Positions 30,445 to 42,890 of a stretch of 64,000 nt of DNA are shown one piece after another; position 1 is the first letter of the stretch; every line of letters begins with the position of its first letter. This DNA is from Octopus vulgaris. Its lineage: Eukaryota. Position numbers and translations under genes: made by a program. The stretch is taken from positions 3,162,001 through 3,226,000 of the forward strand of contig OX597841.1 of NCBI GenBank assembly GCA_951406725.2, written 5' to 3'. The notes beneath the pieces are model-generated. The model had not been told where the DNA came from, ran no database searches, and worked only from the letters and a program-made list of their open reading frames with translations.

Positions 30445-30609
30445 TACGCATGCGCCTTAATTGTACTTCCGCATTGGCATTAAAGTATTTCCGTTTCCTT
30501 TCTCAGTTTCTATTAATTAACTTCTACAAACACCTTCGATACGTTTCCCTAATTTACACACGCACTCTGTAACAACTCTTTCCTGTGCGAAACATTTCCT
30601 TCTGTAAGT
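30445..30609 (+). promoter_or_regulatory. Putative promoter and exon 1 of ZNF-4 (possibly shared with ZNF-5)
   Basis: TACGCATGCGC 30445-30455, ACTTCCG 30465-30471, donor GTAAGT 30604-30609; acceptors at 31219-31220 and 33499-33500. Confidence 0.65.
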
Positions 30610-30882
30610 ATTAAACGTTGAAAATATTTAGTCTTTTAATTCTGTAGACGTTCGGTTTTTTGACGTGTCGATTCTTTGTGTCTCTCTCTCATCTTTTATG
30701 GATGAGAGATGTCCATGATTTGTTTGAGATTTGGCTGCTATTTCTGCCTGTGGAAACCACATCCAGCACCACTTTTTATCGCTGCCCCGTTAGTTTGTGT
30801 GTTTTGGTTCGAAAAATACTCTGAAATAGACTCCAACCACTGAAATGTTCGGAAACCAACACGTATTTCTGCTCAGTTAGAG

Positions 30883-31061
30883 CAGTGCTTTTCAAACTTT
30901 TTACTGGAGCGGAACCCCAAGGAAACATTCCACTGGCTCGAGGAACCCCCGTGCAATAATTTAATAGTCTTATGCACACATATCTGCACAGGAGAATTAA
31001 GAATTACAGCCGATTTTAGCAGTTTTGTAATTTCTTGCGGAACCCTGGTTGAAAACCACTG
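30883..31061. mobile_element. hAT-type MITE
   Basis: TIR CAGTGCTTTTCAA / TTGAAAACCACTG; 8-bp TSD AGTTAGAG at 30875-30882 and 31062-31069. Confidence 0.88.
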
Positions 31062-31383
31062 AGTTAGAGACACCTCAGGGCTATACAACAATGTCAAATT
31101 ATAATTTCAGTTGTTCAGGTAAATTTTTATTTCTGTAGAAATGTAAATTTTCCACTTTTGAATTTGTATTTTTTTTAAGTAGCCTCCATATTTTACACTG
31201 ATGTTTCTTTATTATTTCAGAATATCAGATGACATTGGGATAACTGAAGATACATCCTCAAAATTTATCATCTTTTAAGACTGAAAGGAATTGATGTACA
31301 AAGCAAATTCTTTGTAAAGAGTGAACTATAAGAAGGAAAACTGGAACAATATATATATACATTGTGATTTGAGGAGGAAAATA

Positions 31384-32478
31384 ATGGAAAAGAGCAAAAA
31401 GGTTGAAGAATTGATTTCCCATGAAGACATAAAAGGGATAAGAAAGTTGTCATATGACTGTGATGTCTGTAAAAGGTCCTTCTCTCGAAAAAGTAACCTA
31501 ACTGAACACAAACTTATTCATACAAGAGAGAAGTTGTATTACTGTGATGTCTGTGGCAAATCATTTTCTCAGAAGCGTAATCTAACTGTACACAAATATA
31601 TTCATACAAAAGGAAAGCTATATCCTTGTGATGTCTGTGGTAAATCATTCTATCGCAGTTGTCACTTAACTAGACACAAACGTATTCATACAGGAGAGAG
31701 ATTGTATCATTGTGATATCTGTGGTAAATCATTCTCTCAAAGTGGTCATATAACTGCCCACAGACGTATTCATACAGGAGAGAAACCATATCATTGTGAT
31801 ATCTGTGGTAAATCATTCAGTGAGAATGGTACATTATCTGCCCACAGACGTATTCATACAGGAGAGAAACCGTACCACTGTGATATCTGTGGTAAATCAT
31901 TCACTGTCAGTTCTGCTTTGACTGTACACAAACGTCTTCATACTGGAGAGGAAGCATATCACTGTGATATCTGTGGTAAAGCAGTCTCTCAAAATAGTGA
32001 GTTAAAAAAACACAGACGTATTCACACGGGAGAGAAACCATTTCATTGTGATATCTGTGGTAAATCATTGTCTGATGGTAGTGCTTTAATTGTACACAAG
32101 CGTATTCATACAGGAGACAAGCCACATCATTGTGATGTTTGTGGTAAGTCATTCTCTGACAGTAGCACTCTCTCTTCACACAAACGTATTCATACAGGAG
32201 AGAAACCATATCAGTGTGATATCTGTGGTAAATCATTCACCCAAAGTAGTACGTTAACTGCTCACAAACGTATTCATACAGGAGAGAAGCCATATGGCTG
32301 TGATATCTGTGGTAAATCATTCTCTCAAAATGGTTATTTAACTGTCCACAGACGTCTTCATACTGGAGAGAGGCCATATCACTGTGATATCTGTGGTAAA
32401 TCATTCTCTGTTGGTAGTGACTTAAATATACATAAAAGTATTCATACTGAAGAGAAACCATTTCAGTGTGATATCTAA
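31384..32478 (+). CDS. C2H2 zinc-finger protein ZNF-4, 12 fingers, truncated in finger 13
   Basis: Conserved ATG at 31384 (MEKSKK); ends FQCDI* with TAA at the second Cys position. Degenerate fingers continue to ~33045. Confidence 0.92.
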
Positions 32479-39556: not shown

Positions 39557-39948
39557 TATCTGCAGTAAATGATTCTCCCGCAGTACTGCCATGACTTTAC
39601 ATAAACATATTCATATCAGGGAGAAGCCATGTAACTGCTACCTGTGGTTAATCTTATTCTCAAAATGGTTCTTTCACTGCTCACAGACGTATTCATACAG
39701 GAGTGAAGTCGTATCATTGTGATACCTGCACATAACTGTACACAAACGTGTGTTCATACAGGAGAGAAATCATATGACTATGATATCTGTGGTAAATCAT
39801 TCTCTGAAAGTAGCCATTTGACTAAACACAAACGTATCCATACAGGAGAGAAACTATATCATTGTGATATCTGTGGGACATCATTCTCTGACAATAGTCA
39901 CTCAATTAGATAAATGTACTCATACAGGAAAGAAGCCTTTTCACTGTG

Positions 39949-40390
39949 ATCATCATCGTTTAGCATCTGTTTTCCATGCTGATATGCATTGGATGGTTTG
40001 ACTGGGGACTAGCAAGCCAGTAGGGTGCACCAGGCTCCAATCTGATGTGGCAAGGTTTCTATGGCTGGATGCCCTTCCTAATGCCAACAATTCCAAGAGT
40101 GTAGTGGGTGGTTTTTATGTGCCACTGGCATGGGAGCCTGTCAAGCAGCACTGGCATCAACCACATTTGGATGGTGCTTTTTATGTGCCACTGGCAGCAG
40201 CCACATTCGAATGTTTTTTTGTTTTTTTTATGTGCGACCAGCACAGTAGCCAGTCAGGCGGCACTGGCATCAACTCACACTTGAATGGTGCTTGTTACGT
40301 GTCACCAGGTGCCGGTCAGGTGGCATTGGCTCATCCACAACTACAATTTCCATTTTGATTTGATTTTTACTTGACTCGGTAGGTCTTCTC
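39949..40390 (-). mobile_element. Diverged family D element abutting a vestigial finger
   Basis: CCTTTTCACTGTGAT|CATCATCGTTTAGC... Confidence 0.72.
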
Positions 40391-41681
40391 AAGCGCAGTG
40401 TATTGCCTGATGATTCAAGGGTACTTTTAAATGGGCTGGTATAGGCCATGGCTGTGATCTCACTTTACTTGCCGGTTCTTCTCAATCACAGCCTGTCTCC
40501 AAAGGTCTTGGTGTCCTATCATTGGCTCTGTGAGGCTCAACATTTGAAGGTCGTGCTTTACCACCTCATTCCATGTCTATTTCTGATTATGGAGGGAATC
40601 TTTGCAAGACCCAGGAAAATGTAGGACAAAGTGATGAGAAATGATCTTCAGATTTTGAGCCCCACAGAGGAGACAACAAAGGTCCAAGATATCTGGTGAT
40701 TTGTTGCACTTGAGAACTCAAACTAAGTAAAATATTGGCCATATATACAAACATCTCCTTTACAACCATGCCTTAAACCCTCCCTATATCTGCCCTCTGT
40801 CAAAAATCTCCCACAACCTATCTTATCAACATTCCCTTTACCCTACTCACGATCCCCAACTGCTGCAGCCCTTGCTACTCTCTTTCACATGCATACTCAC
40901 ACACTTTCCATGCCCTCACATTCTTACCATAGCCTTGGTTGGGGCAAGGCTACTTCTCTCACTTGTCACATGGAGGTGCTATGAGGAAAGGTTCCTAATT
41001 GTAGAAAATGAAGTGGGGAAAGAGAACCTCCCTTACCATTATAGACAAAGCAATGAATATAAAACCTTCTAGAGCCTCTTTTCCATCAGGAATTACCTCT
41101 GAAAAGCTTAAAATATTTGGAGGTGTAGGATAAATCAAAAACATAGCTTTCTTCATAGCTCTCTGTGGTCATCTGACATACTAGAAATAACTGCACATTT
41201 CCCTTAAATTTCACCTTTCATTTATGAGTATTGAAGACTATTGGATGATGTGATCCTAGCTATACAATGCTAAAGAGAAAGAAAGGCTGAAAAGTCTTTA
41301 ATCATATTTCTGCTCAGAGACACCTCAGGGTTAAACAACAATGTCAAATTATAAGTTCAGTTGTTCAGGTAAATTTTTATTTCTGTAGAAATGTAAATTT
41401 TCCACCTTTGAATCTGTATTTTTTTTAAGTAGCCTCCATATTTTACACTGATCTTTCTTTCTTATTTCAGAATATCAGATGACATTGGATAAGAGAAGAT
41501 ACATCCTCAATATTTATCATCTTTTAAGACTGATAGGAATTGATGTACAAAGGAAATTCTTTGTAAAGAGTGAACTATAAGAAGGAAAACTGGAACAATA
41601 TATATATAAATACATTTTGATTTGAGGAGGAAAATAATGGAAAAGACTGAGAAAGTAGAAGAATTGATTTCGCATTAAGAC

Positions 41682-42890
41682 ATGATAAAAGGGATAAGAA
41701 AGTCGTCATATGACTGTGATGTCTGTAAAAGATCCTTCTCTCAAAAAAGTGACCTCACTGAACACAAAAGTATTCATACTAGAGAGAAGCCATTTCACTG
41801 TGACACCTGTGGTAAATTGTTCTCTCGCAATAGGGACTTAACTGTACACAAACGTGTTCATACAGGAGAGAAGCCATATCATTGTGATATTTGTGGTAAA
41901 TCATTCTCTCAGAGTAGTCCTTTAACCGCTCACAAACATATTCACACAGGAGAGAAACCGTATCATTGTGATATCTGTGGTAAATCATTCTCAAAAACTA
42001 GTCCTTTAACTGCCCACAGACGAATTCATACAGGAGAAAGGCCATATCACTGTGATATCTGTAGTAAATCATTCTCTCAAAGTAGTGCCTTAACTGGACA
42101 TAAACGTATTCATACAGGAGAGAAGCCATATCATTGCGATATCTGTGGTAAATCATTCTCTAATAGTTGTCACGTTATTGCACATAAACGTATTCATACA
42201 GGAGAGAAACCATATAATTGTGATATCTGTGGTAAATCATTCTGTCAAAGTACTGAGTTAATTGTACACAAACGTACTCATACAGGGGAGAAGCCACATC
42301 ATTGTGATGTTTGTGGGAAATCATTCTCTCGGACAAGTAGTCTTTCTGTACACAAACGCATTCATACAGGGGAGAAGCCATATCACTGTGATATCTGTGG
42401 TAAGCCATTCTCTAACAGTAGTTCCTTAACTATACACAAACGTACTCATACAGGAGAGAGACCATATCACTGTGATATATGTGGTAAATCATTCTCTCGA
42501 AGCAACGATGTAACTATACATAAACGTACTCATACAGGAGAGAAGCCATATCATTGTGATGTTTGTAATAAATCGTTTTCTGACGTGAGTAAACTGTCTT
42601 CACACAAACGTATTCATACAGGAGAGAGACCACATCATTGTGATATCTGTGGTAAATCATTCTCTCAGAGTGGTACCTTGACTTCACACAGACTTACTCA
42701 TACAGGAACGACTCCATATCACTGTGACATCTGTGGCAAATCATTCTCTCAAAATAGCGCTTTAACTACACACAAACGTACTCATACAGGAGAGAAGCCA
42801 TATCACTGTGATCTTTGTAGTAAATCATTCTCTGTCAGCAGTAATCTTTCTGTACACAAATATATTCATACAAGAGAGAAAAAAGAGTAG
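41682..42890 (+). CDS. C2H2 zinc-finger protein ZNF-7, 14 fingers; leader broken by TAA
   Basis: The family start at 41637 reads [13 protein letters not shown] (TAA 41676-41678). An in-frame ATG at 41682 opens an intact 402-aa array. Confidence 0.85.

Follow-up and report, generated by a model that had tools for sequence, protein, structure and literature searches.

Promoterless C2H2 zinc-finger exons in an Octopus vulgaris gene cluster: probable by-products of local deletion, with one candidate pair of alternative arrays

The DNA considered here is a 64,000-nt stretch of Octopus vulgaris (assembly GCA_951406725.2, contig OX597841.1, C28 below; positions 3162001-3226000; "the window") from a genome of 2.8 Gb in 227 contigs. 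It lies in a cluster of C2H2 zinc-finger (ZNF) genes that extends for hundreds of kb beyond it. The window holds nine long C2H2 arrays. Two of these, ZNF-5 and ZNF-7, together with a finger-less remnant on the minus strand, have the splice acceptor of the family and no promoter block of their own. We consider it somewhat probable (about 0.6) that these three are deletion by-products of a birth-and-death cluster and not an evolved splicing switch. They would have been ordinary two-exon C2H2 genes whose promoter-like element and first exon were lost in independent local deletions, leaving the finger exons stranded behind the first exon of a neighbor. Several observations favor this reading, among them the following. 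Up to 33445, the ZNF-4 flank aligns with that of the family; 3 unrelated nt come next, and then intron homology. Each promoterless unit ("orphan") of the window has one inactivating lesion, and the remnant is fingerless. The orphans are no closer to their upstream neighbor than to other paralogs and the tree has no starred fork, and they are therefore not fresh exon duplicates. Among the cases in the window, ZNF-6/ZNF-7 is the one pair of real promise as something more, and it is weighed separately below.

The family gene plan and the missing promoter block

The 5′ part of a family unit consists of a CpG-rich block containing ACTTCCG and a palindrome similar to GCGCATGCGC, a donor ∼150 nt further on, and an intron. 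Its 3′ part comprises a conserved acceptor (TTTCAG^AATATCA), the 5′ untranslated region (UTR), a short MEKSEK leader, the fingers, and the 3′ flank. "Promoter," "exon 1," and "donor" are assignments made from motifs, CpG content, and conservation; we take the palindrome and ACTTCCG to resemble NRF1 and ETS sites. The arrays are TGEKP-linked, as in other tandem C2H2 clusters, and in the three proteins compared with Pfam (3/3) both zf-C2H2 and zf-H2C2_2 score far over the cut-off. The many tandem paralogs, some of them broken or partial, are what a birth-and-death cluster contains.

The first-pass annotation of the window had given seven ZNF units their own promoter motif and GT(A/G)AGT donor and had denied both to ZNF-5 and ZNF-7. 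Motif and donor were located in all seven. ACGCATGCGC has six exact plus-strand copies (3251, 22920, 30446, 37177, 47155, and 52492) and occurs once, with one mismatch, as a palindrome at 18777-18786. Allowing at most one mismatch gives nine matches against 0.96 expected, a count reached by 0/100 shuffles. The donors follow 148 to 165 nt after each motif, at 3411, 23071, 30604, 37325, 47310, 52647 and, on the minus strand, 18621. A hidden Markov model (HMM) of the promoter/exon-1 block scores 124 to 146 bits upstream of ZNF-4, ZNF-6, and ZNF-9, the only three controls run. Ahead of ZNF-5, ZNF-7, and the remnant it never exceeds 0 bits, with filters on or off. The CpG observed/expected ratio, measured for six promoters, is 0.83 to 1.56 there; ahead of ZNF-5 it drops to 0.49 and ahead of ZNF-7 to 0 to 0.23. 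The absence of a promoter block at these two genes was thus borne out, as was their retention of the family acceptor, whose AG ends at 33500 (ZNF-5) and 41470 (ZNF-7); that of the remnant ends at 13266 on the minus strand. A scan for sigma-70 promoters was set aside as irrelevant in a eukaryote.

A missing HMM match can nevertheless be a false orphan, since seven genes of this chromosome, at C28:2.54-2.58 Mb, carry a promoter of a second type that was missed by the first HMM. ZNF-7 (or ZNF-5) might accordingly have a nonfamily promoter of its own, for example, in the upstream repeats. We regard this as improbable: the second promoter model has no match upstream of ZNF-5 or ZNF-7 either, and the upstream DNA, which is accounted for by 3′ flank and old repeats, is CpG-depleted and has no GTAAGT donor.

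ZNF-5 and the minus-strand remnant

ZNF-4, upstream of ZNF-5 on the plus strand, has the full gene plan. Its promoter-like motif and putative noncoding exon 1 (ACGCATGCGC plus ACTTCCG; 30446-30603, with no ATG from 30480 onward) precede a GTAAGT donor at 30604. The acceptor (AG ending at 31220), the 5′ UTR, and an open reading frame (ORF; 31384-32478) of 12 fingers occupy 31170-32478. The dead tail of the array contains a repeat resembling a short interspersed element (32543-32970, approximate ends), of which the window has many copies. It is followed by a degenerate last finger and the family 3′ flank (32972-33445), in which a conserved ATTAAA at 33335 precedes a GU/U-rich tract. The 3 nt at 33446-33448 resemble neither the continuation of the family 3′ flank nor the paralogous intron, and there is no microhomology. 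Then follow ∼50 nt of ZNF-5 intron end (33449-33500) with a branch-like CTGAT and a pyrimidine tract, the final 45 nt being identical to those of ZNF-4. The abrupt start of ZNF-5 homology, fused to the ZNF-4 3′ flank as noticed at first pass, is placed at ∼33449.

In its acceptor-leader region, ZNF-5 is 92.8% identical to ZNF-4 and 92.3 to 92.5% identical to ZNF-8 and the next gene past the window. Because it is about equally close to these genes and to ZNF-4, a deletion between two genes fits better than an exon duplication. ZNF-5 itself (33660-34659, plus strand) has an ORF of eight fingers at 33660-34409, is frame-shifted (at ∼34404-34407) after finger 8 of about 11, and continues with ∼3 out-of-frame fingers. 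Its 3′ flank is unique, with AATAAA at 34950. The segment 34660-35170 is not family flank and found no other match in a genome search, which implies a second rearrangement at the ZNF-5 stop codon.

That ZNF-4 and ZNF-5 share a leader, as first proposed, is allowed by the geometry, and the ZNF-5 acceptor, identical to that of ZNF-4, looks splice-competent. The proposal is nonetheless weak, as ZNF-5 is frame-shifted and the ATTAAA of ZNF-4 is intact, 165 nt before the ZNF-5 acceptor; this hexamer column is occupied in 4/12 aligned family 3′ flanks. ZNF-4 transcripts would end at the ATTAAA at 33335, normally ∼150 nt short of the ZNF-5 acceptor, and leaky read-through would be the only route to ZNF-5. 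Within the repeat of the ZNF-4 tail lies a donor-like GTGAGT (32699), 800 nt upstream of the ZNF-5 acceptor, to which it could splice.

On the minus strand, ZNF-2 (16452-18786) has its motif at 18786-18777, donor at 18621, acceptor at 18046, and an ORF of 15 fingers at 17780-16452, after which AATAAA occurs at 16168. The remnant (12100-13266, minus strand) consists of an acceptor, a 5′ UTR, and a broken leader with a GTG start and stops, directly followed by 3′ flank; more than 1 kb of intron homology lies upstream of it. It was first described as standing to ZNF-2 as ZNF-5 does to ZNF-4. An acceptor without a promoter block is indeed there, while the second whole DNA-binding array is not. With no fingers in any frame, the remnant is not a DNA-binding array and cannot be an alternative one. 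Moreover, six poly(A) hexamers and an inverted 3′-flank fragment separate ZNF-2 from the remnant acceptor. Both ZNF-5 and the remnant are probably pseudogenes in decay. Many partial and pseudogenic units are also described for mouse KRAB-ZNF clusters in the part of PMC5363842 that treats them.

Tandem arrays are hard to assemble, and the junctions might in principle be assembly errors or private to one haplotype. This we find scarcely credible, given that the junction at 33446-33448 has no shared repeat or microhomology, that the window is free of N, and that just one of the 40 candidates scored contains the complete ZNF-7 junction region.

ZNF-6 and ZNF-7: probable fused transcription unit, possible functional pair

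ZNF-6 has its promoter-like motif and putative noncoding exon 1 at 37177-37324 (plus strand), a GTAAGT donor at 37325, and an acceptor (AG ending at 38309) that, with an ORF of 12 fingers at 38471-39556, occupies 38260-39556. A dead finger tail follows (39557-39944), with seven gap openings and a mismatch rate in invariant columns of 10% versus 4% in live fingers. The place of the ZNF-6 3′ flank and the ZNF-7 promoter is taken by ∼1.2 kb of old interspersed repeats (39945-41132) without A(A/T)TAAA: one at 39945-40578, one in opposite orientation at 40579-40933, and one at 41034-41132. Then come ∼340 nt of ZNF-7 intron end and acceptor (41132-41470, plus strand). The family ATG opens a leader of 13 codons (41637-41678) that ends in TAA at codon 14 (41676-41678), and 3 nt later an in-frame second ATG starts the ORF at 41682-42890 (402 amino acids). 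The first-pass assignment of an ORF with 14 intact C2H2 fingers to 41682 therefore stands, with the qualification that 41682 is the second ATG and the family ATG is at 41637. The second ATG is ancestral, being present also in the paralogs at C28:3243186 and 3233097; a compensatory insertion is ruled out. The same leader codon is TAA in ZNF-7 (41676), in the remnant (12620, minus strand), and in a distant promoter-bearing copy (C28:2511413), through either recurrent mutation or conversion. In its acceptor-leader region, ZNF-7 is 91.6% identical to ZNF-6 and 91.5 to 92.0% identical to four other paralogs, which, as for ZNF-5, speaks against a fresh exon duplicate.

Neither the family 3′ flank nor a canonical A(A/T)TAAA was found in 39557-41470, where variant hexamers (AGTAAA, TATAAA, and others) occur. 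As the ZNF-6 3′ flank and canonical hexamer are gone, read-through into ZNF-7 is likely, and the two genes are likely one transcription unit, predicted to end at a conserved ATTAAA in the ZNF-7 family 3′ flank (43427-43432, plus strand). Under the deletion reading, ZNF-6 transcripts would run on to this signal and contain ZNF-7 mostly as 3′ UTR. The near acceptor (intron of 985 nt) would normally beat the far ZNF-7 acceptor (4146 nt). Some splicing to the latter is plausible, so that RNA joining exon 1 to ZNF-7 would be a minor by-product, and a poorly translated one, its strong upstream ATG running into a stop after 13 codons.

Several observations weigh against reading ZNF-7 as a mere by-product. 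The array has lost 0/56 zinc ligands, is gap-free, and shows no excess divergence (0.045 versus 0.043); its framework deviation falls in the lowest fifth among 80 promoter-bearing genes. Framework dN/dS is 0.35, within or next to the range of 11 promoter-bearing neighbors (0.24-0.36), on a nearest-finger measure that is blind to recent relaxation. Only 2% of the mutational target can be hit without harm to the array, and the sole lesion of ZNF-7 falls there. Since a leader stop is combined with an intact array in four promoter-bearing genes, the stop at codon 14 is no proof of death. With the deletion age taken as uniform up to 2 to 15% divergence, constraint makes a clean array 6 to 44 times as probable as neutral decay does, a ratio that varies with this age prior. 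ZNF-6/ZNF-7 is also the sole tandem pair of 11 in the census below without an intervening hexamer. Complete arrays remain in 5/11 tandem orphans, versus 90/118 promoter-bearing genes (p = 0.037, only indicative because paralogs are not independent). Finally, the ZNF-7 deletion is undatable, and a very recent deletion and use via the ZNF-6 leader therefore both stand.

These features raise the possibility that ZNF-6 and ZNF-7 are one functional gene, in which exon 1 splices to either acceptor and the ZNF-7 protein, started at ATG 41682 through re-initiation or leaky scanning, is maintained by selection; it would be an accidental, young counterpart of Drosophila lola, found only here and perhaps in a few further pairs. 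We hold this to be possible but doubtful. The missing canonical hexamer and 3′ flank speak for it, 113/118 promoter-bearing genes having A(A/T)TAAA within 1.5 kb, as does an array that is clean while the ZNF-6 tail has decayed by ∼6%. The ZNF-7 fingers are a median of 10/84 nt from the nearest finger of another gene, so that recent conversion is no explanation of their intactness, and the likelihood ratio given above points the same way. The distal acceptor is moreover the more pyrimidine-rich (17/20 versus 15 in ZNF-6), with two purine-to-C changes private among 10 paralogs, which were noticed post hoc.

There are counterweights. A(A/T)TAAA is also missing from 11 to 17% of random 1.5 to 1.9 kb windows; variant hexamers are present, as mentioned above. 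Acceptors with 17 pyrimidines are common (23/134). Translation from the strong family ATG would end 3 nt ahead of the rescue ATG, a short spacing that would disfavor re-initiation. The ZNF-7 5′ UTR has in addition gained an upstream ORF (uORF) of 33 codons; the putative exon 1 of ZNF-6 has one of 4 codons. A deletion younger than ∼1% divergence would explain everything without expression: under neutral decay, the clean array requires divergence since loss of constraint of less than about 1%. The 14 intact fingers had been taken at first pass to argue that ZNF-7 is expressed; they bound neutral decay in this way and are no proof of expression.

A single insertion of a long interspersed element (LINE) with target deletion, which would have dated the ZNF-7 event, was not supported, as the filler consists of several old repeats in mixed orientation. 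Over long matches, these are 67 to 78% identical to the copies fetched, 40 of 6298 and 40 of 679 candidates having been scored. The best 120 of 555 hits of a protein search with ZNF-7 were generic ZNFs of 38 to 59% identity, none octopus-named, and exact look-ups made alongside found 0/6.

A census of the chromosome

A genome-wide count of promoterless terminal exons had been proposed at first pass. It was made over three C28 stretches (1.264 Mb in total) with 134 acceptors, in classes that are heuristic. The first promoter type precedes 111 acceptors and the second type seven, giving 118/134 (88%) with a promoter block of their own. The 16/134 without a recognized promoter are 11 tandem orphans and five head-to-head orphans, the latter being promoterless acceptors without an adjacent same-strand leader. 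Complete arrays are found in 8/16 orphans overall, and 23/118 promoter-bearing genes are truncated or dead. Tandem orphans are enriched for dead genes, with ≤5 translatable fingers in 4/11 versus 5/118 promoter-bearing genes (Fisher p = 0.003, again only indicative), in line with the deletion reading. Orphan breakpoints are scattered between −50 and −1265 nt relative to the acceptor, and 10/11 tandem pairs have one or more A(A/T)TAAA separating the orphan acceptor from the array that precedes it. The orphan at C28:3035705, 98.4% identical to a promoter-bearing twin, is already frame-shifted.

Four dispersed acceptors at C28:8.19-8.59 Mb, with neither tandem neighbors nor a promoter match, were left out; 8/52 ORFs with at least six fingers have no acceptor match and are uncounted; and three of the "own promoter" assignments are doubtful, the promoter being 9.6 to 13.5 kb distant. 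A strict test of "dead," applied from the family ATG, gave 6/9 orphans versus 3/80 (p = 1e-5). It was dropped as overstated in favor of a lenient one because in some promoter-bearing genes the leader is dead and the array intact. At C28:2.54-2.58 Mb, seven units that at first resembled a multi-exon run of orphans were reclassified, as they carry the second promoter type. These seven intact ZNF genes (C28:2537000-2576000) have a GGAAGTGACGTCA promoter block, presumably ETS/CRE-like, and a longer first exon in place of the GCGCATGCGC type. The orphans at 2600116, 3261105, and 3299481 are divergent and may have a third promoter type.

The first-pass annotation had envisaged a mirror image of clustered protocadherins, with regulated switching of arrays by splicing or poly(A) choice throughout the cluster. 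Promoterless acceptors do recur, and half of them are complete (8/16). Yet a promoter block belongs to each of 88% of the acceptors, intact exons never form a run behind one leader, the breakpoints are heterogeneous, five orphans are head-to-head, and 2/3 of the window examples are broken. With one promoter per gene in 118/134 and head-to-head orphans in 5/16, there is no organized mirror of protocadherin logic, and we rate such a switch as very improbable. What fits of the underlying idea, one exon 1 for two whole arrays, is the geometry, with real sequence support at ZNF-6/ZNF-7; the idea is weak at ZNF-4/ZNF-5 and fails at ZNF-2 and the remnant.

An intermediate version extends the choice between two arrays, created by deletion at ZNF-6/ZNF-7, to other complete orphans (such as C28:22372522 and 22211940), so that alternative DNA-binding exons of the lola kind would have been born repeatedly by deletion in the octopus ZNF cluster. 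We consider the extended choice unlikely, and the repeated birth of such exons equally so, if less so than an own promoter or a cluster-wide switch. The two orphans named are complete, tandem, and on the minus strand, with 26 and 17 fingers, respectively; in the upstream partner of C28:22372522, a repeat cuts the array after eight fingers. At C28:22441000-22489000, four promoterless minus-strand genes of 9 to 14 fingers lie head-to-head with the palindromic promoter of a partner, and bidirectional use of these promoters with new donors is possible.

If the deletion reading is true, the result is a modest one. About 1/8 of the finger exons in the sampled stretches have no recognized promoter, and counts of octopus C2H2 genes that are based on ORFs are therefore probably too high as a measure of independent genes. 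If instead ZNF-7 uses the ZNF-6 leader, DNA-binding exons of the lola design would have started from one deletion between tandem genes, and a cephalopod family thought to expand by whole-gene duplication would show splicing-based diversification.

Relation to known systems

The logic of a shared leader is already known from Drosophila lola and from read-through splicing. A common 5′ part with alternative 3′ zinc-finger exons is found, as in lola, in mod(mdg4), fruitless, and broad. In lola, a common BTB region is spliced to at least 20 finger-bearing 3′ exons (PMC1947980), which is the logic proposed for this locus. The passages of that paper concerned describe common exons that encode a BTB domain, 20 or more isoforms, splicing both in cis and in trans, and demonstrated isoform functions. 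Here, by comparison, the putative common exon is noncoding, at most two arrays follow a leader, the arrays are whole former genes, and alternative isoforms are a prediction. The putative exon 1 of ZNF-4 has no ATG from 30480 onward and that of ZNF-6 has one uORF of 4 codons, BTB does not occur in the best 25 of 28-34 Pfam hits, and no leader precedes more than one intact orphan.

Read-through between neighbors, or cis-splicing of adjacent genes (cis-SAGe), concerns same-strand genes less than 30 kb apart and joins the second-to-last exon of one to the second exon of the next, according to the part of PMC4450057 that sets out the rule. Applied to two-exon ZNF genes, this rule predicts exactly the junction of exon 1 with the orphan. 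The acceptors of the same-strand pairs ZNF-4/ZNF-5 and ZNF-6/ZNF-7 are 2280 and 3161 nt apart, and their geometry and predicted splice signals would allow this exon pattern. The difference is that both partners in cis-SAGe, as described there, retain a promoter, which the 3′ gene lacks in the present case; read-through would therefore be its only route. As the rule leads one to expect such a junction in every tandem pair, its presence at a low level would not in itself demonstrate a switch.

The KRAB-ZNF clusters share birth-and-death, partial units, and duplications, deletions, and inversions of arrays with the cluster described here, as far as the relevant section of PMC5363842 goes. Unlike them, the octopus genes have no KRAB exon and an apparently noncoding exon 1. 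Vertebrate clustered protocadherins, as summarized in a passage of PMC9068888, splice many first exons to last exons that they share. The present cluster has the opposite polarity, and 118/134 of its units are self-contained, each with its own terminal exon, so that only the idea of mixing is common to both. Cephalopod protocadherins, according to the same passage, grew via whole-gene duplication and not splicing (PMC9068888).

Passages on coleoid C2H2 clusters describe dense tandem finger-only genes like those here (PMC9068888, PMC9795677), located in O. sinensis on chromosomes 14, 27, 28, and 30 (PMC9795677). The same passages give no account of gene anatomy, promoters, or promoterless exons (PMC9068888, PMC9795677). 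Octopus ZNFs are among those examined for predicted transposon binding in the portion of PMC10547256 that deals with it. Promoterless or shared-leader ZNF exons in cephalopods were not found in a literature search that did not cover the 2015 octopus genome paper and its supplements, which may describe C2H2 structure.

Other features of the cluster

In the local subfamily (window 31170-31550 and paralogs), the acceptor, 5′ UTR, and leader are 83 to 95% identical, the promoters and 3′ flanks 65 to 75%, hinting at gene conversion or at unusual constraint on a 5′ UTR with small uORFs. ZNF-4, ZNF-5, ZNF-6, and ZNF-7 can be told apart by the first 25 nt of their exons. An expanded subfamily at C28:2610000-2745000 has its MEKSEK leader and first finger lost or broken. 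Many of its members have arrays of up to 25 fingers that are open from an internal Met (MHKRIH...), suggesting that the leader is dispensable there. Within the window, partial copies of the exon-1/donor block or of the promoter motif occur without a gene of their own at 47-114, 1268-1319, and 58800-58851. Two further ORFs, at 46416-46919 and 20331-20786, look by eye like the C-terminal end of LINE-type reverse transcriptases.

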